64,000 nucleotides of DNA from a virus (taxonomy: Duplodnaviria; Heunggongvirae; Uroviricota; Caudoviricetes), in IMG/VR virus record IMGVR_UViG_3300035156_000038, positions 21,726 to 85,725 of that record; one strand, 5' to 3'. A program made the translations under genes and the position numbers. Shown here one piece after another: positions 5,354 through 55,526 of this stretch (positions are counted from its first letter, which is position 1; each line of letters begins with the position of its first letter). The notes under the pieces are model-generated. The model was not told where the DNA came from. It saw only the letters and a list, made by a program, of their open reading frames with translations, and made no database searches.

Positions 5354-5382
5354 TTGACAGGATAGCGAATCTGTGTTAAAAT
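5354..5382 (+). promoter_or_regulatory. sigma70-type promoter
   Basis: TTGACA - 17 nt - TAAAAT upstream of chaperone gene. Confidence 0.6.
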
Positions 5383-32128: not shown

Positions 32129-32998
32129 TTACAACGGCATCAGTTCAAGAACTGGAATCCCGTCGATAATCAACCCGCAACCGATGATCGGGCGCTTCAG
32201 GTTGGTATTGTTGTAGCTAAACGCGTAGCTATCGTCGTGAATCAGGCAACCTACCTGCATACTAAAATACGCACCCAGCGGGTTAGCCCAGTAGTTCACG
32301 CCGAATTTCTCATGGTAGTGGCCTTGGACGACAGACATTCCCATCGCTTGCGACAGCTTCATACCGTCAGCCGACTTGCCGTGGTGGAAGTACACCTTCT
32401 GGCCGTCAGGCAGTTCGATAGTCATATCCATGTGCCACTTCCAGCCGCTACCTACGCCTAGCACATCATTGTAGCTCTTGATGTACTGCCGTGGAACGCC
32501 GTGATGCTTGGCTTTGCGCCATACCAAGCTACCATGATTGCTGTCTAGGATGTCCATGTTAGGGAACATCGTTTCGACTTCCTTAATGATGGGCAGGGAA
32601 GCACGAAGCTCGTCACCAGCACTCATCAGGTCAGGGTCGCTATCATGGAAGGAAAGCGCGTGCTTGTCAAGCTCATCGCCAATGCTAATAATCCGGGTAG
32701 GATCGTAGCGAAGCTTCAAGCCAGCAAGGAAAGGCAGCATCTTCGGATGATGGTAGGGGATGTGCATATCCGAGATAATCAGGACACGTGAGTTGTCCTT
32801 ACCGTCTTCGTAGTCAACACGCCCCGGCTCGCAGTACATATCGTCAATGCGCGCTTGTGCCTTCATTTCCCGGTAGCCACGCAGGTAGTCGTTCACGGTA
32901 GTCTTGCCTTTGCCTACGGCTTTAGCAATGTCCCGGTCGGACGTTCCGGCTTCGGCTAGCTTAACAGCTAGGTTCTGCCAGTGTTGGTTCGTATCCAT
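32129..32998 (-). CDS. calcineurin-like metallophosphoesterase with N-terminal HTH
   Basis: ISDMHIPYHH (D.H), GDELDKH (GDxxD), DSNHGS (GNH[DE]) motifs; N-terminal 40 aa helix-turn-helix-like. Confidence 0.6.
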   Translation of the reverse strand: MDTNQHWQNLAVKLAEAGTSDRDIAKAVGKGKTTVNDYLRGYREMKAQARIDDMYCEPGRVDYEDGKDNSRVLIISDMHIPYHHPKMLPFLAGLKLRYDPTRIISIGDELDKHALSFHDSDPDLMSAGDELRASLPIIKEVETMFPNMDILDSNHGSLVWRKAKHHGVPRQYIKSYNDVLGVGSGWKWHMDMTIELPDGQKVYFHHGKSADGMKLSQAMGMSVVQGHYHEKFGVNYWANPLGAYFSMQVGCLIHDDSYAFSYNNTNLKRPIIGCGLIIDGIPVLELMPL

Positions 32999-33004
32999 AC
33001 TACT

Positions 33005-33030
33005 CCTGTTAAAAGCCCCGCCGAAGCGGG
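33005..33030 (-). terminator. rho-independent terminator (leftward)
   Basis: CCCCGC-CGAA-GCGGGG followed on the minus strand by CUUUUAAC. Confidence 0.5.
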
Positions 33031-33037
33031 GTAGTTG

Positions 33038-33436
33038 TTAAACGGCTGCTACCAGAGCTTCAGCCGCAGCAATCATTTCTACCTTGGCTGTTTCGTACGC
33101 AGCTTTAGTCGCACGCACCTTGGCAGATGCCGCCTTGAAGGCCAGCATTTCCGAGGCTTCAGGGCCAGCAGCTTCCACAACACGCAGGCCACGGACGCCC
33201 ACGATGTATTGTTCGTTGCCGATTTCAATGCCAGCGACTTGCTCACTATTGGCATACGCGCCTTCAGATGGCGGGGTATGGTCAGCAACAGCGATCACCT
33301 TACCCACCGTACGTGGCACAGTGTTGTGCAGCTTGTAGTTACGGAGCCCGTTTCGATCAGCAAAGCGTTGGAACGTGCTGTAGTTCTGGCCGGGGTTGGT
33401 AACTTCAACGATGTCGCCTACTTTAATGGTAGTCAT
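33038..33436 (-). CDS. paralog-family protein 1 (IKVGD barrel motif + coiled-coil tail)
   Basis: MTTIKVGDIVEV… N-term; Ala/Lys-rich helical C-term; RBS AAGGAGATAACATG. Confidence 0.5.
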   Translation of the reverse strand: MTTIKVGDIVEVTNPGQNYSTFQRFADRNGLRNYKLHNTVPRTVGKVIAVADHTPPSEGAYANSEQVAGIEIGNEQYIVGVRGLRVVEAAGPEASEMLAFKAASAKVRATKAAYETAKVEMIAAAEALVAAV

Positions 33437-33448
33437 GTTATCTCCTTA

Positions 33449-34201
33449 TTATTTAAGAAGTTCAGCAGCAGTTGCTTCGAACTTGTTCACGGCGATGGTG
33501 TAAGCGATGCTAGCGTTACGAAGTTCGTCACGGGCTGCTTGCAGTTGTTCGGCTTTGGTAGGTTCCACGGTTGGTGGCAGCACAACCCAAGTGCCTTTGC
33601 TTACGTAATCTTTGACGGAGCTAACATCGTACGTGGTGTTACCACCGTCCCATTTTACCGTAGCACGGTCACTGCCTTTCAGGCCCGTGATGTCCACCGT
33701 GTAGATTGTGGTTGCATCGTCTACATGGCGGAAGCGGAAGCTATTAGGCTCTGCTGGTTTAGCAGGCTTCACTTCTTCAATGTACTGCCACACACAACCG
33801 AACTTGGCACAGCCGTTCAGGTTGGTAACAAGCGCGCTTTCTTCCCAGAACGCTTTATGTTCGGGGGTAGCCACTTCGTCAGCGGTAGTGCACACAAACT
33901 TGGTGCCGTCAACGCGCGTCATGCGGAAGTTACCGCCCGGAGTGGTGAACTTGAACACATCCGGCAGGGTAGTGAACACGGGTTCGAAGCACGCCAGCGG
34001 GTATGAGAAGCCGCAATCTGCGATGGCGTAGCCTGTATTGTTGATGCAGACGCCCGTGATGGTAGTGGTCTTGCCCACCATTTTATCCATTTCTCCAACC
34101 CACGAATTCTGCCACTCGACGCCCTCACCCATGCCGTTCTTGTCGTCGGTTGCTACCGCACGGACCACACGGACTTTATCACCAATCTTCAGTTCCTTCA
34201 T
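33449..34201 (-). CDS. paralog-family protein 2
   Basis: MKELKIGDKVRVV…; C-terminal coiled coil; 250 aa. Confidence 0.5.
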   Translation of the reverse strand: MKELKIGDKVRVVRAVATDDKNGMGEGVEWQNSWVGEMDKMVGKTTTITGVCINNTGYAIADCGFSYPLACFEPVFTTLPDVFKFTTPGGNFRMTRVDGTKFVCTTADEVATPEHKAFWEESALVTNLNGCAKFGCVWQYIEEVKPAKPAEPNSFRFRHVDDATTIYTVDITGLKGSDRATVKWDGGNTTYDVSSVKDYVSKGTWVVLPPTVEPTKAEQLQAARDELRNASIAYTIAVNKFEATAAELLK

Positions 34202-34237
34202 TTCATTCTCCTTGTTGAGTTAAGTTTGGTAGCTAGT

Positions 34238-34267
34238 GTTTTAAAATGATAGCTACCTAGCTGTCAA
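34238..34267 (-). promoter_or_regulatory. sigma70-like promoter (weak −10)
   Basis: Minus strand: TTGACA - 17 - TTAAAA. Confidence 0.35.
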
Positions 34268-34273
34268 GCTAAA

Positions 34274-34879
34274 TTACAGCGCAGCGCGTTCGGCCTTGGC
34301 TTTAGCCAGTGCTTTTTCTGCGTCTGCAATCGCTTTGTCCGCTGCTTCCTGCTTACGCTTCAGTTCGGTGAAGTCTTGGGCTTCCCACACCAGCGAACCA
34401 CGTGCGGTAAAGTCTAGAGCATGGTAAGCCGCTGGCGGGTTGTACACCTTAACGATGTCGTAGCCGCTGTTTGCGCCGTGGATGCCTTCCGTCACGCCAT
34501 TTAGACGGGCTTTCAGGGTAGCACCGCCCATTGCGTCCACGATGCGCAGGTAGCCGCTTTCTTCGTAGCCAACCATGCCCCCGCCGCCGTCACGGAATTC
34601 GACACGTTGGAACGGCTTCAGGTCAGCCGTAGCGAACTTAATGCGCTTGCCGTTTTCATCAACGCCGTTGGTGTCGTCGGCTACCAGTTCGAAGCGGTAG
34701 CCGTGGTAGCTAAAGCCTTCATGGTCAGAGCCTTCCAAGCCCAGCGAGCCGTCATAGCATAGTTCGCGGACGGTGTGTACCGAGCCTTCCAGTAGCCTGC
34801 CCGACGAGTAGCGACTAGCGGTGTTACGGCCTTGGCCGACTTTGACGATTACTTTACTACCGATTTTGATTGCGCTCAT
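34274..34879 (-). CDS. paralog-family protein 3
   Basis: MSAIKIGSKVIV…; C-terminal KQEAADKAIADAEKALAKAKAE coiled coil; 201 aa. Confidence 0.5.
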   Translation of the reverse strand: MSAIKIGSKVIVKVGQGRNTASRYSSGRLLEGSVHTVRELCYDGSLGLEGSDHEGFSYHGYRFELVADDTNGVDENGKRIKFATADLKPFQRVEFRDGGGGMVGYEESGYLRIVDAMGGATLKARLNGVTEGIHGANSGYDIVKVYNPPAAYHALDFTARGSLVWEAQDFTELKRKQEAADKAIADAEKALAKAKAERAAL

Positions 34880-34931
34880 GATTATTTCTCCTTGAGTTAG
34901 TTTACCCTATAGGGCAGTTAAGTAAGCAGCT

Positions 34932-34961
34932 AGTATAGTAGCTAGCTGCCTTGGTTGTCAA
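34932..34961 (-). promoter_or_regulatory. sigma70-type promoter
   Basis: Minus strand: TTGACA - 18 - TATACT. Confidence 0.5.
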
Positions 34962-34964
34962 GCC

Positions 34965-35531
34965 TTATTTCAGGGCTGCTTCAGCGGCTTCGACTTCTGC
35001 TTGCGCAGCAGCCAGCTTAGCTTTAGCGGCTTCCAATGCTTCACGCTTGGCTGCGTCTACTGCCGACCAGAGCAGTTCACCACGGGCTGATACGTTCAGG
35101 TAGCTAGCAGCGTGCTTCGGGGCTGCGTACACTTCCTTGATGTGGCAGCGATAGCCGTCAGTGCTAAGGAAGGCGCGATCCCAGCAACTTTCGCCAGCGT
35201 AGACGATAGCAGCGACGCTATGTTCAGCTTCTTCCACGAAGATAGCAGCACGGCCATCGTTGGTAATGACACGCATCCCGGTAGTCAGGTCAGCGATGGT
35301 AGTGATCGTGTCGGCCTTCACCAGTTGGAAACGGTGTGGATGTTGGCCGCTACCGCCAATGCCCACGCACTTGATAAGATCACAACCTCCGTCGCTTTCG
35401 TACATGACGATTTCCGACACAGTAAGAACCTTGCCCACCGACTCACTGAAGGAGCGGGAACCTTCCGAGGACAGAACAAGAACTTGGCTACCAACTTCGA
35501 TGCCATGCGAACGATTGAGTTTACGGGTCAT
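34965..35531 (-). CDS. paralog-family protein 4
   Basis: Start set at MTRKLNRSHGIEVGSQV (RBS AAGGAGAAATAACATG); coiled-coil C-term closely similar to protein 3. Confidence 0.5.
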   Translation of the reverse strand: MTRKLNRSHGIEVGSQVLVLSSEGSRSFSESVGKVLTVSEIVMYESDGGCDLIKCVGIGGSGQHPHRFQLVKADTITTIADLTTGMRVITNDGRAAIFVEEAEHSVAAIVYAGESCWDRAFLSTDGYRCHIKEVYAAPKHAASYLNVSARGELLWSAVDAAKREALEAAKAKLAAAQAEVEAAEAALK

Positions 35532-35532
35532 G

Positions 35533-36072
35533 TTATTTCTCCTTAAGTAGTTTGGTAAGAAGCGCCTTACGCTTCGTTGCATTTGACACAGAAACGCCAG
35601 TATACCCGTTCTTAGCTAGCAGTGCAAGTGATTTCGACTTATTTTTCAAAATCTCTGTTACCTGCTTTTCTAGCTTGGCTTCTTCGAAGCTAATGCCTTT
35701 CGACTGGGACAGAGTATAGCACTTGTGGCAAGGCTTGCACAAGACCCGCAGGTTCGTAACTTCGCAGAACAAGCGGCCCACGAATGGGCCGATGTCATCC
35801 GTAGACAGGATGCTACCAGCGTCGTGCGGGAAGTGGTCAACTTCGATTTCCTTCTGCTTAAACCACTCCTTACAGATAGCACACATCACTTCGTACTTCT
35901 GAAGCTTGTTAGGGCCTTTGTAGGGCCTTCTGGCAGCTTGAATAGCCTCACCCCTGCACGGCCAGCGCAACCACTTGCTACGCAGCGCAGAACGAACCCA
36001 AGCTAGGTACTGGGATTCTGTCATCGTGCCACTACACCGGGTTAGCTGGCCTTTTGGCTTCTTAGTTGCCAT
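35533..36072 (-). CDS. HNH endonuclease
   Basis: EVDHF…NLRVLCKPCH HNH signature; 179 aa; inserted between paralog cluster and exonuclease. Confidence 0.6.
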   Translation of the reverse strand: MATKKPKGQLTRCSGTMTESQYLAWVRSALRSKWLRWPCRGEAIQAARRPYKGPNKLQKYEVMCAICKEWFKQKEIEVDHFPHDAGSILSTDDIGPFVGRLFCEVTNLRVLCKPCHKCYTLSQSKGISFEEAKLEKQVTEILKNKSKSLALLAKNGYTGVSVSNATKRKALLTKLLKEK

Positions 36073-37187
36073 TAGTGTTCCACTCCCAGCTTAGTTAGCA
36101 CAGCCTTAACGTCGATCTTGTCACCTTCGTGGCGTAGCATCATAGCTAGCGAGAACATTTCCTGCATCACGTGCAACCAGTCAATCTCAACCGGGCCTTT
36201 GCAGCCTTCCACAGTTTTCTTCTCGGGGTAAAGCATTTTGAACACATCCACCAAGGCTGTGAAAGCTTCCTTGTCTGTGGTGCAGTCCTTGAGTGCGTTG
36301 TACGCCCCTTTCTCTGCCCACTTCTTGTCACTGAAGCAGTTAGCTTTGTAGTTGTCAGCCGCATCGCCGTTAGCTACTTGGAAGTACAACCACATCCGGC
36401 CCTTGCCATCAACCTTGCCCTTGTCGTTCAACCACAGCCCACCGAAGCCTTCAATCAGCCGGGGTTCAACATCATTGTTCGGGTCGAAGTGCCAGCCTTC
36501 CGTACCCTTGCTATCCTTGTCCACAGCTACGCCGATGACACGGGGGCCAGTACGCCCAGCAGCCTTCCACGCCTTGTAGCCAGCTAGTACGTCGATACAG
36601 AACGCATCATCCGTTTCAATGCCGTAGATCATCTTACTATTGTGGCGTTCGCATACGTAAGCTTTCATTTCGTCCAGCAGCAACGGGCGTAGCAGGTCTT
36701 CACGGTTGCCCTTGTATGGTAGCAAGGTAGCTAGCTTGTGGCGGAACACATCCCCCGAGCCTGTATAACCCCGGTAGTTGTGGCAGTTCAGCTTAGCACA
36801 GATGGACTTGATCTTTTCGTCAATAATCATCTTAGCACCATCGCTAGGACTCATGAACGTATCCGGCCCACGTACTTCATTACCGTTTTCGTCAATGCCC
36901 GTCAGTTTACCCTTCTGCCTGAACGGTCGTGGGCGATGCCCCGGTACAACTTCGAAGTCTTCAGCCTTGTAGTAGTCCGTGCCTGCTACCGAGTTCTTAA
37001 GCCCGATCCAGCCGCCTACCTTTTTACGCCAGTCACCCCATAGGGCCGTTACGTTGTCAAGCTCTAGCACTTGCCCTGTAGGCTTGTGCGTGGCTGTAAT
37101 GAACTTTTCTTCGCTAACGCTCACAGCGTCGAATATTACAAAATCCATATCAAACACCAGTACGTCTTCTTGACCAATCGGTTTCAT
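36072..37187 (-). CDS. 5'-3' exonuclease, T7 gp6-like
   Basis: N-terminus VLVFDMDFVIFDAVSVSEE resembles T7 gp6 ILVMDGDWLVFQAMSAAE; conserved DKD…G[YG]SG blocks; 371 aa. Confidence 0.5.
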   Translation of the reverse strand: MKPIGQEDVLVFDMDFVIFDAVSVSEEKFITATHKPTGQVLELDNVTALWGDWRKKVGGWIGLKNSVAGTDYYKAEDFEVVPGHRPRPFRQKGKLTGIDENGNEVRGPDTFMSPSDGAKMIIDEKIKSICAKLNCHNYRGYTGSGDVFRHKLATLLPYKGNREDLLRPLLLDEMKAYVCERHNSKMIYGIETDDAFCIDVLAGYKAWKAAGRTGPRVIGVAVDKDSKGTEGWHFDPNNDVEPRLIEGFGGLWLNDKGKVDGKGRMWLYFQVANGDAADNYKANCFSDKKWAEKGAYNALKDCTTDKEAFTALVDVFKMLYPEKKTVEGCKGPVEIDWLHVMQEMFSLAMMLRHEGDKIDVKAVLTKLGVEH

Positions 37188-37744
37188 GTTCCATGCCTTT
37201 CTGTGTATCCGGCCCCGGCCTTATTTAAAGCCTCGATAGCTTCAGCACGGCACTTTACTGCCAATCTGAAAGCTTCTTCTTCGCCGTACTTGTTAATGGT
37301 AAAAGTCTTGTTGCGTTTAACGCCCTGCAAATCCACCCACTGCGCAGTCCACACCGGGTACTCCATGCCCTTATGCTTCGGTATTCTTAGGTGTACGCCC
37401 GTCACTCCCGTTGTGTTGGACTTATGCTTAGGGACGTTGCGCCTGTTCACCACCTTCAACACTCTGCGTAGGTTGCTTGCTGCGTTGTTACCTTTATCGC
37501 CGTCTACGTGGTCAATTTCAAATCCGGTACAATCACCGTACACAAGCTCACACACGATTCGATGACAAGCATAATTCTTATCTTCGTGCTTGACCTTCCA
37601 GTAACCTTCGGCGTTCTTGCCCCCCACACACGCGTCTGCTGGTGCGAACATCACCTTATGCCCAGTACCACCCATGAGAGGGTGTACACGGCGTAGGCCG
37701 CTAGGGCTGCTTTCACTGTAGTAGAAAACATCACTCCAATCCAT
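37184..37744 (-). CDS. HNH homing endonuclease with AP2 DNA-binding domain
   Basis: HRIVCELVYG…IDHVDGDKGNNAASNLR (HNH_3) then TGVTGV…W.AQW (AP2-like). Confidence 0.6.
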   Translation of the reverse strand: MDWSDVFYYSESSPSGLRRVHPLMGGTGHKVMFAPADACVGGKNAEGYWKVKHEDKNYACHRIVCELVYGDCTGFEIDHVDGDKGNNAASNLRRVLKVVNRRNVPKHKSNTTGVTGVHLRIPKHKGMEYPVWTAQWVDLQGVKRNKTFTINKYGEEEAFRLAVKCRAEAIEALNKAGAGYTERHGT

Positions 37745-53399: not shown

Positions 53400-53729
53400 T
53401 TAGCTACGAAGCCAGCCAAAGGATAGCACGTAGCGGGTACTACCTACAACCTTTGTTACGCTATGTTCGCACTCGTCAGGCCGGAACAGCTTTATCCGCT
53501 TAGTCTGGAAGATAGGAGTCTTGCAAACAAACTCACCACCTTCCTTGGACGCCTTCAGAACCACGTTCAGCCTGTAATGCTTGCCGCTTTGCACAGGGTC
53601 AGTGTGCGGCGGGATTTCCGAACCTTCCGGGTAGCGAAGGATGTAAAGGTCGAAAGGGAACGGCCATTTCCCGCTTAGCAGCAGCTTCTTTTGGTAGCCA
53701 GTGCCTTGCCTGCCCTGTTCCCACTTCAT
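53400..53729 (-). CDS. 2OG-Fe(II) oxygenase-like small protein
   Basis: Start set at MKWEQGRQ; PPHTD…(~50 aa)…EHSV resembles the HxD…H iron triad. Confidence 0.35.
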   Translation of the reverse strand: MKWEQGRQGTGYQKKLLLSGKWPFPFDLYILRYPEGSEIPPHTDPVQSGKHYRLNVVLKASKEGGEFVCKTPIFQTKRIKLFRPDECEHSVTKVVGSTRYVLSFGWLRS

Positions 53730-53730
53730 G

Positions 53731-53961
53731 TTAAGCCTTTTCAGCCAGCAGCGTACGGATTTGTGCGACAGGCAGGCCGAAGGTTTCATGTGCACGCAGG
53801 ATGATCGTAGCACCCACCTTCAGCGAGCCAGCACGAATCTTGCTAACCACTGGCGGCTTCACATTCAGTGCGATAGCCAAAGCACGGTCGCTAGCTACGC
53901 CCTTGTCAGCACGCAGGTAGTTGAACAGGTTGCCCGAGGCGTCATTTTCGTAAGTTTTCAT
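53731..53961 (-). CDS. HTH DNA-binding protein (Cro/CI-type)
   Basis: 76 aa; SDRALAIALNVKPPVVSKIRAG helix-turn-helix; RBS AAAGGAGCTACAAATG. Confidence 0.5.
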   Translation of the reverse strand: MKTYENDASGNLFNYLRADKGVASDRALAIALNVKPPVVSKIRAGSLKVGATIILRAHETFGLPVAQIRTLLAEKA

Positions 53962-53979: not shown

Positions 53980-54549
53980 TTAGTCGTCAAACTGGCCTTC
54001 AACCAGTGCGATTTTCATGCAAGCGACACGGCCCGAAGCTTGTACCGCGTCAGCTTTAGCACGTGTTTCGTGGTTGTTCCCTGCAACCAGCTTACCATCG
54101 CGGTTGTGGACGTTGACGTAAATAAAGCCTTCGGCTGGTTTCGGTTGCACGTTTTGCAGGTCACGGGGGCTTGGCGAGCCGATGTAGTACGAACCGTCTT
54201 TAGTCCAGCTAATCAGATCAGCACTCTCCCCGATGTAGCCCTTTACTGGGTAATTACCGCGCCCATTTGTTACAAGGATGGTTACAGCCTTGCCTTCCTT
54301 GGTTTCCAGTGGCTTCGTGAAGTCCAGTTCAGCCTTAATTGCTACGAAGTGGCGTGGGCGAATGAACTGCGTGTCCACATAAGCGGATTGATCGCCGTAG
54401 TAGCACATCCCGCGAGCAAGAATGCTATCCCCCGCAGCATTTCGTTCGATAGTGACAATATCACCGTGTTTGAAATTGTGGTAGTTGTCACCTTCCTTGC
54501 CACCCGCGATGATACGAACTTTGTCACCAGCTTTAAGCGTTGATTCCAT
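53980..54549 (-). CDS. paralog-family protein 5
   Basis: Start set at MESTLKAGDKVRII (RBS AAGGAGAATCAAAATG); shares DFTKPLET..G with protein 6. Confidence 0.5.
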   Translation of the reverse strand: MESTLKAGDKVRIIAGGKEGDNYHNFKHGDIVTIERNAAGDSILARGMCYYGDQSAYVDTQFIRPRHFVAIKAELDFTKPLETKEGKAVTILVTNGRGNYPVKGYIGESADLISWTKDGSYYIGSPSPRDLQNVQPKPAEGFIYVNVHNRDGKLVAGNNHETRAKADAVQASGRVACMKIALVEGQFDD

Positions 54550-54583
54550 TTTGATTCTCCTTGAGTTAGTTAATAAAGCAGCT

Positions 54584-54612
54584 AGTATATTAGCTAGCTG
54601 CTTGGCTGTCAA
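54584..54612 (-). promoter_or_regulatory. sigma70-type promoter
   Basis: Minus strand: TTGACA - 17 - TATACT; overlaps the ORF-finder start, supporting the internal start. Confidence 0.55.
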
Positions 54613-54615
54613 GCC

Positions 54616-55431
54616 TTATTTCGGCCAACGGCCCGACACCAGCGTGACTTTGGCGATGCCGATAGGGCCACCAGCCAACAGGCTACGTGCGCTAGCTCCC
54701 GAACCGCGACGGGCTGCATCTGCGGTAGGGTACAGCTTGGTAGCGACTTGCTGGCCTTCACGGTTGCCTTTCGGGTCGAGCAGGGCGACGAACATTTCCG
54801 TCACGACTGGTTCCACCTTCGGAACTTCGTTGGTCAGGAAGCGGCGAGCTTCACGGTTCTTAGCAACACCGTTTACGGTGTATTTGGTAGGCAGTGAAGC
54901 TGAGCCTTCATACACCAGAACAGGGAACTTGGCATCACGCGGGTTCGTGGTCGTAACCAGAGCAACCGGGGTGCCTTCGGCAGTGAACAGCGGCTTGGTG
55001 AAGTCTAGCAGATGCTCCGCCAGTTCGAACGCCAAAGTTGCAGCCGTGTAGCGATGACTGCGGCCAGCAAGCTCGTCAATTTCAAGCCCGGTAGTGTCAT
55101 ACTCGATTCCTTCGTGGCTGCTGTAAGTAGTACCAGCTTTAGTGACGGTAACGATCTTACCGATGTCTTTTGGATGGGTGCCGTAGCCGCTTATAGCGAT
55201 GCGTACGCGGTCGCCCACTTTGAATCCGACAGCTTTCATCTGGTCTTCCCCGATGATTTGGCTCTTGGTTTCGCCACGGTCGCCAACGCCTTGCACGTTG
55301 TAACGCTGCGCACCCATGCTGTTCGAATGCAGGGAAGTGATGGTGGCAACCGAGCCTTCACGCAGGTAGTGGCCAATACTGCCACGGCGGGTAACTTGGA
55401 CTTTTTGACCGATTTTGAATTTGGTTTGCAT
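54616..55431 (-). CDS. paralog-family protein 6
   Basis: Start set at MQTKFKIGQKVQV (RBS AGGAGAAACAAACATG); two KOW-like repeats (KIGQKV…, KVGDRVRI). Confidence 0.5.
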   Translation of the reverse strand: MQTKFKIGQKVQVTRRGSIGHYLREGSVATITSLHSNSMGAQRYNVQGVGDRGETKSQIIGEDQMKAVGFKVGDRVRIAISGYGTHPKDIGKIVTVTKAGTTYSSHEGIEYDTTGLEIDELAGRSHRYTAATLAFELAEHLLDFTKPLFTAEGTPVALVTTTNPRDAKFPVLVYEGSASLPTKYTVNGVAKNREARRFLTNEVPKVEPVVTEMFVALLDPKGNREGQQVATKLYPTADAARRGSGASARSLLAGGPIGIAKVTLVSGRWPK

Positions 55432-55497: not shown

Positions 55498-55526
55498 ATC
55501 TTAACCCAGCCTACGCGTCTTGTCAA
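55498..55526 (-). promoter_or_regulatory. sigma70-type promoter
   Basis: Minus strand: TTGACA - 17 - TAAGAT. Confidence 0.55.

Follow-up and report, generated by a model that had tools for sequence, protein, structure and literature searches.

Four adjacent minus-strand genes of this phage, which we call A, B, C and D, encode proteins made of small modules in series followed by an amphipathic helix. At the same genomic slot, related phages carry such modules in one, two or four ORFs. We tentatively propose that the four products are putative acidic, non-enzymatic binding modules, tethered into oligomers by their tails and derived from a locus that repeatedly splits and fuses. This is our best explanation, and we give it a little less than an even chance. 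The window is the whole stretch of 64,000 nucleotides that was analysed. An initial annotation of it spoke of a ~64-kb phage, which is too small, as the source contig has 91,295 bp.

Module make-up of the encoded proteins

The initial annotation grouped A-D with two further genes, E and F, as one six-member family with a common N-terminal start and a C-terminal coiled coil, each copy having its own ribosome-binding site. All six ORFs are indeed present, and strong ribosome-binding sites are found at 6/6 of them:

Gene A, 33038..33436, minus strand: 132 aa; N1 SH3-like barrel (aa 1-90), C-terminal helix
Gene B, 33449..34201, minus strand: 250 aa; N2 SH3-like barrel (aa 1-76), M1 (aa 77-209), C-terminal helix
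Gene C, 34274..34879, minus strand: 201 aa; N4 SH3-like barrel (aa 1-68), M2 (aa 71-172), helix (aa 170-200)
Gene D, 34965..35531, minus strand: 188 aa; N3 SH3-like barrel (aa 1-73), M2 (aa 78-161), C-terminal coiled-coil helix
Gene E, 53980..54549, minus strand: 189 aa; one SH3-like barrel, E/F-type C-terminal domain, no coiled coil
Gene F, 54616..55431, minus strand: 271 aa; SH3-like barrels (aa 1-65 and 66-135), E/F-type C-terminal domain, no coiled coil; pI 9.7

The window architectures are therefore N1+CC for A, N2+M1+CC for B, N4+M2+CC for C and N3+M2+CC for D, where M1 of B has two internal units, each of ~62 aa. Two observations support the start of D at 35531: homologues begin with MTKLNRKHGIEVGS, and AAGGAG lies 8 nt upstream. 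A 323-aa plus-strand ORF (33035-34006) is antisense to A and B, and was taken as spurious for this reason.

The N-terminal barrel is common to all six proteins, but the remainder falls into two families that occupy two conserved slots. When the six are compared by BLASTP, only C with D (29% identity, E 3e-6) and E with F (30% identity, E 1e-9) are linked over their full length; similarity between B and E is marginal, and A matches none of the other five. The SH3/KOW-like starts noted initially are remote homologues, as hhalign links the N1-N4 and E/F barrels with probabilities of 80-96% for most pairs. The middle regions do diverge as described: M1, M2 and the E/F C-terminal domain differ, none of them is related to the barrels in profile-profile comparisons, and M1 shows no relation to M2 either. 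The profile of the E/F C-terminal domain matched no A-D-type protein in the fetched loci. E and F are thus a family distinct from A-D, with the barrel alone in common.

The barrel motif h-K-x-G-[DSQ]-x-V-x-[IV], a pattern composed after the ORFs had been seen, occurs seven times in the six-frame translation, 7/7 inside these six ORFs (two in F), compared with 0.07 occurrences in shuffled sequence. One could still argue that there is no true family here, and that the likeness goes no further than a widespread beta-strand motif and Ala-rich tails of low complexity. Most BLASTP pairs are non-significant, and within the window the module HMM of one N type matches no other N type. However, the profile-profile probabilities given above, a heptad periodicity of the tails far above that of shuffles, and the recombination of the same modules over seven phage loci and ~150 proteins have largely refuted this argument, and its remaining probability is minimal.

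The coiled coil claimed for all six proteins holds for A-D and their wider family, but E and F lack one. The A-D tails are amphipathic and consist of 3-4 heptads. Across the family, 78% of the strong hydrophobic residues in the tails occupy a/d positions, versus 50% +/- 11% in shuffles. The median tail is 27 aa long, and in 132/151 M2 proteins it measures 21 aa or more. The terminal residues themselves differ widely, and the idea of a degron or docking motif conserved at the C-terminal extremity was rejected. The Cys pairs of the middle regions were likewise rejected as a zinc site, since the cysteines are not conserved among homologues.

C is the sole protein that was modelled. Its AlphaFold2 model, built on an M2-dominated alignment of 150 sequences, has a pLDDT of 87.6 and supersedes an earlier, poor model from 5 sequences (pLDDT 65.7). 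Two beta-sheet domains are predicted, followed by a long helix (aa 170-200, pLDDT 89-98). The predicted fold includes a small five-stranded beta-barrel that superposes on KOW/SH3 domains, as expected of the SH3-like/KOW barrel superfamily. The fold matches are SH3/KOW-type barrels only, with the RNA-binding KOW proteins L24, Spt5 and NusG at the top, and span just 50-65 residues of generic barrel. Foldseek against the PDB returned nothing at E <= 0.001, and structure matches in BFVD are to uncharacterised phage proteins only. A-D are acidic, as is most of their family (median pI 5.4, 87% of members below 6.5). Family members contain no long hydrophobic stretches and match no enzyme family in Pfam or NCBIfam.

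We conclude that M1 and M2 are undescribed domains, and that M1 is a two-unit repeat. At E <= 1e-3 there are 387 metagenomic cluster representatives of M2 (115 at E <= 1e-10). The initial annotation did not recognise the family, and neither do Pfam, PHROGs, NCBIfam or the PDB, nor does it match anything in cultured phages. For the six proteins, every match in Pfam, PHROGs and NCBIfam is either below threshold or of unknown function. GenBank phages gave no match, either by megablast with 5-kb and 25-kb pieces of the window or by tblastn with A, B, C, F and P0022, a homologue closer to the consensus. No credible match came from sequence searches of the PDB, for which the C/D profile, the E/F profile and B served as queries; a word-indexed protein search with B returned B alone, and the C/D-family alignment, scanned against IMG/VR, yielded zero confirmed loci.

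The sub-threshold Pfam matches are as follows. KOW (PF00467) matches none of the six, and one E/F homologue reaches 15.7 bits where the cut-off is 22.3. For SH3_15 (PF18346, the Mind bomb SH3 repeat) B scores 15.2 bits, below the gathering score of 24, and 3/150 homologues match at E <= 1e-3. For Phage_ProQ_C_like (PF24203) aa 65-109 of F score 19.1 bits, below the gathering score of 27, and 1/150 homologues matches at E <= 1e-3. DUF4453 (PF14627) was considered for the E/F C-terminal domain and rejected, as E scores 22.3 bits against 26.1 and 0/6 E/F homologues match. Weak matches to phrog_14634 ('DNA binding protein') are seen in 5/150 members.

Conserved slot and transcription signals

A-D belong to the minus-strand arm of the genome that carries replication and nucleotide-metabolism genes, a long way from the structural block on the plus strand (1-18 kb). 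The genes on either side are:

Upstream flank, 35533..36072, minus strand: 179 aa, basic (pI 9.7) and Cys-rich, resembles HNH nuclease; 63-80% identical in relatives
Downstream flank, 32129..32998, minus strand: 289 aa, N-terminal HTH; family annotated as metallophosphoesterase in cultured phages; 67-81% identical in relatives

Genes of the A-D type sit between homologues of these two genes in 7 independent phage loci, and HNH, phosphoesterase, MazG and RNR genes are neighbours in every relative. The locus would thus be one that repeatedly splits and fuses domains at a fixed HNH-like/metallophosphoesterase slot, which lies within the DNA-metabolism module in a clade of uncultured phages of roughly 50-90 kb. 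The host is probably a gammaproteobacterium, as the closest polymerases are those of Aeromonas and Pseudomonas phages.

The number of ORFs at the slot depends on the phage. One relative (L002) has N3+N2+M2+CC and N1+M1+CC, another (L001) has N1+M2+CC and M1+CC, and a third (L023) has N3+M2+CC plus M2+CC behind an untyped N-terminal region. M1-like+N1+CC is found in L006 and L021. In L027 there is a single 348-aa ORF, in which N1 and M2 were assigned by profile and two M1-like units were read from the sequence. Altogether, more than 25 architectures occur among 159 family proteins. The four tandem copies, initially described as an expansion, are not a simple local one and look like a redistribution of modules that are found in 1-2 ORFs in relatives. 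The initial annotation also called for copy number and variability to be compared across related phages. In this comparison the modules are spread over one, two or four ORFs, and their identity between relatives is 24-51%, compared with 58-81% for the flanking genes.

Most of the divergent phages examined keep the slot and the order of genes, M2 then M1/N1, which would suit a conserved function of the clade better than a free accessory region. The modules are missing from more distant relatives whose flanking genes are the same (L007-L010 and L022), which suggests that the function is dispensable or replaceable.

The slot of E and F is conserved too, and lies between DNA ligase and RNA ligase. 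F-type members have a pI of 7.7-9.7, mostly ~9, and with this basic character E and F are predicted to be the more plausible nucleic acid binders.

Most copies were said to have their own TTGACA promoter. This stands for C, E and F, and for B with a poor -10, but A and D have none. The signals are:

Cassette upstream of C, 34916..34964, minus strand: promoter-like TTGACA-18-TATACT and a 10-bp stem (GCAGCTAGCT/AGCTAGCTGC) spanning the -10
Cassette upstream of E, 54570..54615, minus strand: promoter-like TTGACA-17-TATACT, a 10-bp stem and a T-rich tail
Promoter-like element upstream of B, 34225..34267, minus strand: GCTTGACA, weak -10, inverted repeat GGTAGCTA...TAGCTACC
Promoter-like site upstream of F, 55498..55526, minus strand: TTGACA-17-TAAGAT
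Terminator-like hairpin directly 3' of the A stop, 33011..33031, minus strand: CCCCGCTTCGGCGGGG then CTTTT

The C and E cassettes are nearly identical over ~55 bp, with hairpins of -15.7 and -20.2 kcal/mol (z -2.5 and -4.0), and the B copy is looser. The promoter-hairpin motif was not found in the related loci searched. In the window ~13 TTGACA-type promoters are spread out, so these are a genome-wide feature. The ATG of D is 1 nt past the stop of the upstream HNH-like gene, and A starts 12 nt past the stop of B. A-D would probably be transcribed alongside the DNA-metabolism genes from host-type sigma70 promoters: D by read-through from the upstream gene, C and B from their own promoters and A following B, with the hairpin after A potentially ending the transcript.

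Possible functions

The features of A-D are those that might be expected of cytoplasmic, non-enzymatic binding proteins. In our preferred explanation each protein would present predicted beta-rich modules (the N1-N4 barrels, M1 and M2), and the coiled-coil tails would bring A-D together as homo- or hetero-oligomers, in which several barrel modules could be shown jointly to one target. According to the Rosetta-stone principle, domains that form one protein in some genome but separate proteins in another tend to work together. The fusion seen in relatives therefore suggests joint action of the modules: what some relatives carry as a single, covalently joined polypeptide is here split into four ORFs, each fragment keeping its tail. 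A short Ala-rich tail could alternatively pack on its own domain or dock onto another partner. Judging by charge alone, a protein target is more probable than a nucleic-acid one, although SH3/KOW/Tudor-like barrels bind RNA and DNA too.

The initial annotation suggested diversifying selection, for example on a variable binder/inhibitor family aimed at host factors. Along these lines, A-D would be host-directed inhibitors or hijackers, and each module would neutralize its own host factor or defence protein; an analogy is provided by T7, where small proteins are interspersed with the DNA-metabolism genes. Low identity of the modules relative to their flanks, their absence from more distant syntenic relatives, the acidic proteins, the combinatorial architectures and the host-type promoters in a non-structural arm are all consistent with this suggestion. 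However, the slot and the M2-then-M1/N1 order are kept in most of the divergent phages examined, Pfam, PHROGs and NCBIfam give no anti-defence annotation, and the sequences are too diverged for dN/dS. We regard it as unlikely, if well worth keeping in mind. It overlaps with our preferred explanation, from which it differs solely in the target.

Nucleic-acid-binding regulators, with KOW, LSm or ProQ-Tudor-like barrels controlling phage transcripts or replication, are a quite unlikely alternative for A-D. A similar role has been proposed for T4 MotB (PMC7827196) and for the GoF/MotB.1/Frd.2 family (PMC12152347). The top fold matches (L24, Spt5 and NusG), the weak Phage_ProQ_C_like and phrog_14634 matches, the location among DNA-metabolism genes and the basic F-type members between DNA ligase and RNA ligase point in this direction. 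But A-D are acidic, as is 87% of the M2 family, all of the Pfam matches are under curated cut-offs, and the fold matches cover a generic barrel; such a role is more plausible for E and F than for A-D. Virion or assembly components (e.g. decoration, neck or scaffold proteins) come to mind too, as SH3-like domains and coiled coils are common in such proteins. Both the distance of A-D from the structural block and the HNH, phosphoesterase, MazG and RNR neighbours in every relative argue against it, and we find this highly improbable.

Returning to the tail-tethered binding modules that we prefer, a more speculative extension is that A-D form a 'split multidomain' complex. Binding domains spread over 1-4 polypeptides would be re-joined by the coiled-coil handle and could re-assort against a host target that evolves fast, for instance a factor of defence or DNA metabolism, while the assembly is kept; the promoter-hairpin cassettes would serve as recombination joints. 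We consider this a long shot.

If our explanation is true, there are two new domain families outside Pfam and PHROGs, i.e. M2, with several hundred metagenomic representatives, and the two-unit M1 repeat. The locus would be a case of natural gene fission and fusion in a fixed phage slot, with every fragment keeping its coiled-coil handle, and the four products would be expected to associate via their tails. It would also be a source of compact, naturally shuffled binding modules, and their target could reveal a new phage-host interaction. Should these prove to be ordinary accessory genes, the gain is mainly better annotation.

Comparison with known systems

T4 MotB is an early protein that combines a KOW-like domain at its N terminus with a C-terminal OB fold and binds DNA tightly, and its homologues in related phages keep one domain and have the N-terminal one swapped (PMC7827196). 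Like MotB, A-D are small, modular, non-structural phage proteins with an N-terminal KOW/SH3-like barrel and no recognized enzymatic function. Compared by description, they differ in being acidic, in having M1 or M2 in place of the OB fold, and in their coiled-coil end.

[quoted passage not shown] There, as here, a phage has several very dissimilar proteins whose shared small N-terminal barrel, SH3-like/LSm-like, is visible only by structure or profile. However, the T4 proteins have no coiled-coil tail, M1 or M2, and no reported fission or fusion in one slot.

Finally, the T4-type PeSL cassettes are composite elements, made of a promoter and a stem-loop, on the flanks of variable genes (PMC2839356, PMC4122927). 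The elements described here were seen in two or three copies, belong to another phage lineage and were not found in the related loci. Those of C and E resemble PeSL in that each unites a sigma70-type promoter and a 10-bp stem-loop and borders a variable gene.

The six ORFs and their domains

Six ORFs had been grouped by the initial annotation as one paralogous family. All are minus-strand genes, each with its own AAGGAG-type ribosome-binding site, but beyond a common N-terminal barrel the remainder of the proteins differs. In the list below, N1-N4 are N-terminal SH3/KOW-like barrels, M1 and M2 are undescribed domains and CC is a C-terminal coiled-coil helix.

ORFs of the window and their modules
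A: 33038-33436, minus strand, 132 aa; N1 (aa 1-90)+CC
B: 33449-34201, minus strand, 250 aa; N2 (aa 1-76)+M1 (aa 77-209)+CC
C: 34274-34879, minus strand, 201 aa; N4 (aa 1-68)+M2 (aa 71-172)+CC
D: 34965-35531, minus strand, 188 aa; N3 (aa 1-73)+M2 (aa 78-161)+CC
E: 53980-54549, minus strand, 189 aa
F: 54616-55431, minus strand, 271 aa

All-against-all BLASTP finds only two clear pairs, C with D (29% identity, E 3e-6) and E with F (30%, E 1e-9); the B match to E is marginal (E 0.005) and limited to the N-terminus, and A has no match among the other five. Comparing homologue-enriched profiles of the N-terminal domains, hhalign gives most pairs a probability of 80-96%, with several alignments spanning the whole domain, so the proposal that all six begin with SH3/KOW-like barrels, remotely homologous ones, is borne out. 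The pattern h-K-x-G-[DSQ]-x-V-x-[IV], which we composed once the ORFs had been seen, occurs seven times in the six-frame translation, each time inside the six ORFs, and no additional family members were found elsewhere in the window. Profile-profile comparison relates M1 (in B) and M2 (in C and D) neither to the barrels nor to each other; the reported divergence of the middle regions is thus real, although the cysteine pairs noted there are not conserved in homologues. M1 is a repeat of two units, each about 62 aa long (hhalign 97.9%, E 4.6e-13). The C-terminal coiled coil has a heptad signal in A-D but is absent from E and F. A 323-aa TTG-start ORF on the plus strand (33035-34006), antisense to A and B, has neither a ribosome-binding site nor homologue evidence and is most likely spurious.

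E and F belong to a separate family, for which a word-indexed search gave five further members. One to three barrels are followed by a conserved C-terminal domain (LDFTKPLxTxEGxPV ... ending TLVxGxF), whose profile, run on the fetched loci, picks out E/F-type proteins alone; the F-type proteins have basic pI values, mostly around 9. A weak DUF4453 match for E was rejected, as it is not common to homologues. Both in the window and in two other phages, the genes sit between those for DNA ligase and RNA ligase; one of the two other phages carries an F-like gene paired with an E-like one, which makes the duplication an old one. Two mutually overlapping ORFs separate E from the RNA ligase (53400-53961, minus strand), one of 76 aa (HTH-like by eye, no Pfam match) and one of 137 aa (2OG-Fe(II) oxygenase). 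These look like an insertion, because RNA ligase follows immediately on the E/F-type genes in the related metagenomic phage loci L025 and L026.

An exhaustive HMMER search with a C/D-type profile recovered 387 cluster representatives at E <= 1e-3, 115 of them at E <= 1e-10, with the conserved core NGVDxxGxPxxFTxxDLKPFxRV ... IxEVYxxP ... GxLxWK, then a helix. Module profiles distinguish more than 25 architectures among 159 proteins, in which N1, N2, N3, N4 and M1 units precede M2 in varying number and order. The family is, as first stated, an unrecognised one: among 150 members scanned, Pfam gives only a few weak matches (SH3_15, n=3; Phage_ProQ_C_like, n=1), and PHROGs solely families of unknown function, which where checked match the N-terminal barrels, with M1 and M2 covered by nothing. 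NCBIfam and PDB sequence searches returned no matches, nor did tblastn against 50,697 records of cultured phages, queried with a consensus-like member and with A, B, C and F.

AlphaFold2 modelled C poorly from a five-sequence alignment (pLDDT 65.7) and confidently from 150 sequences (pLDDT 87.6, pTM 0.72). The protein is predicted to comprise two beta-sheet domains (strands at aa 9-65 and 92-167) and a helix (aa 170-200). Foldseek found no PDB match at E <= 0.001, and BFVD matches were to uncharacterised phage proteins only; judged from the model, the matched folds are generic SH3/KOW barrels that point to no specific function. Family-wide, 78% of strong hydrophobic residues in the tails take a/d positions once the best register is chosen, compared with 50% +/- 11% in shuffles, and the tail has at least 21 residues in 132 of 151 M2 proteins (median 27), which argues for a real coiled-coil-type helix. 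The last residues vary, so a conserved terminal motif is ruled out. The tail is independent of M2, since proteins lacking M2 also end in it (A, B, and proteins of 176 aa in L001 and 263 aa in L002).

Module arrangements in one slot

The window comes from a phage contig of 91,295 bp, and its DNA matched no GenBank phage. Structural genes, including a tape-measure-sized ORF of 2,023 aa, occupy the plus strand over about 1-18 kb; replication and nucleotide metabolism are encoded on the minus strand, over about 19-58 kb (family A DNA polymerase, DnaB-type helicase-primase, ThyX, RNR, MazG, RNA ligase, DNA ligase and HNH endonucleases). At 46-51% identity, the polymerase matches those of Aeromonas phages and those of Pseudomonas phages that are about 88-95 kb long, e.g. 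vB_PaeM_G1. This arm also holds an HNH_3 and AP2 homing-endonuclease-type gene (37184-37744, minus strand), similar genes being present at other positions in L023 and L027; it adjoins a 371-aa gene, possibly the counterpart of an annotated 'exonuclease' gene of Nitrincola phage 1M3-16. In L002 (17167-20840) and L023 (9541-12378) the RNR genes are followed by genes for NADAR, a PRPP-synthetase-like protein (Pribosyltran_N) and NAMPT/NAPRTase, which form a phage NAD-salvage module.

A-D lie between two genes whose homologues flank module genes in every related locus listed here.

Slot flanks in the window
35533-36072, minus strand: Cys-rich HNH-like protein, 179 aa
32129-32998, minus strand: HTH-phosphoesterase, 289 aa

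Module genes in the same slot of related phages
L001: N1+M2+CC (216 aa); M1+CC (176 aa)
L002: N3+N2+M2+CC (279 aa); N1+M1+CC (263 aa)
L005: barrel+M2+CC; N1+M1+CC
L023: untyped N-terminal region then M2+CC; N3+M2+CC
L006/L021: M1-like+N1+CC
L027: single 348-aa ORF; N1 and M2 (by profile), two M1-like units (read from sequence), then CC

A-D, first described as a tandem expansion, are not a simple one; they are one layout of a module set that relatives place in one or two ORFs. The locus holds its position within a phage clade: flanking proteins are 63-81% identical between phages and the modules 24-51%. More distant phages with the same flanks (L007-L010, L022) have other genes in the slot or an empty one, likewise Nitrincola phage 1M3-16.

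With a pI of 9.7 and a net charge of +18, the 179-aa protein is very basic; by eye it has an HNH-like motif, CxxC...EVDH...LCKPCHK, with no matching Pfam family. In all relatives its gene is kept upstream of the slot. In the window it is translationally coupled to D, the D start codon (ATG) lying 1 nt past its stop; in L027 the equivalents of the two genes overlap. The three closest relatives carry an Ala-rich ORF of 72-80 aa between the HNH-like gene and the first module gene (L001 9748-9978, L002 9739-9981, L005 6303-6521), missing from the window and L023.

Promoters and composite cassettes

Individual promoters of the form TTGACA-17-TAnnnT had been ascribed to the family. Such sites, with 17- or 18-nt spacing, are present upstream of C (34961), E (54612) and F (55526), and B has TTGACA at 34267 with a weak -10, but D, 1 nt past the HNH-like stop, and A, 12 nt past the B stop, have none. 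A hairpin with a T-run lies directly 3' of A. Throughout the window, intergenic regions contain about 13 promoter sites whose -35 is of the GCTTGACA type, so they are a phage-wide property and not one of the family. Sigma70-type promoters with the extended GCTTGACA -35 and a 17-18-nt spacer stand ahead of many genes on both strands, e.g. at 5354(+), 12549(+), 26056(-), 39367(-), 40621(-), 42592(-), 45743(-) and 48229(-), which suggests that the phage relies on host RNA polymerase throughout.

Composite promoter-hairpin cassettes
34916-34964, minus strand: upstream of C, directly after the D stop
54570-54615, minus strand: upstream of E, directly after the F stop
34225-34267, minus strand: looser copy upstream of B

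The C and E cassettes are near-identical over about 55 nt, each combining GGCTTGACA-17/18-TATACT with a 10-bp palindrome (GCAGCTAGCT / AGCTAGCTGC) across the -10. Stem energies are -15.7 and -20.2 kcal/mol (z -2.5 and -4.0); a T-rich tail is present in the E copy, and neither cassette was found in related loci. Similar composite promoter and stem-loop cassettes (PeSLs) occur in T4-type phages (PMC2839356, PMC4122927), and by this analogy the present ones could serve simultaneously as terminator and promoter, and as recombination joints.

A possible role for the modules

By the Rosetta-stone principle, modules that some genomes fuse and others encode separately tend to act together. The split A-D modules would then do so too, and the coiled-coil tail, which every A-D fragment retains, would be an obvious means of keeping separate pieces joined. 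Because of this fusion and splitting between genomes, and because the tails could hold the pieces, we tentatively favour A-D being non-enzymatic binding proteins, whose tail-driven oligomers would display several barrels to a single target. For A-D, no enzymatic signature was detected. The proteins are acidic (pI 5.2-6.7) and soluble; the M2 family has a median pI of 5.4, with 87% of members below 6.5, and no long hydrophobic segments were found in it. Their acidic charge would point to a protein as the target. That A-D inhibit host factors, as the initial annotation proposed, is compatible with such binding and otherwise the same, yet it names the target, and in that specific form we regard it as doubtful. 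A nucleic-acid-binding role for A-D, E and F in the manner of T4 MotB or GoF (PMC7827196, PMC12152347) suits E and F better than A-D and seems unlikely overall, while the genomic position makes a role in the virion very improbable.

Phage proteins that are small, SH3-like in fold and of no assigned function are an already known kind. New here are the M1 and M2 domains, the rule of a coiled coil at the end of every fragment, and the documented fission and fusion inside one slot.
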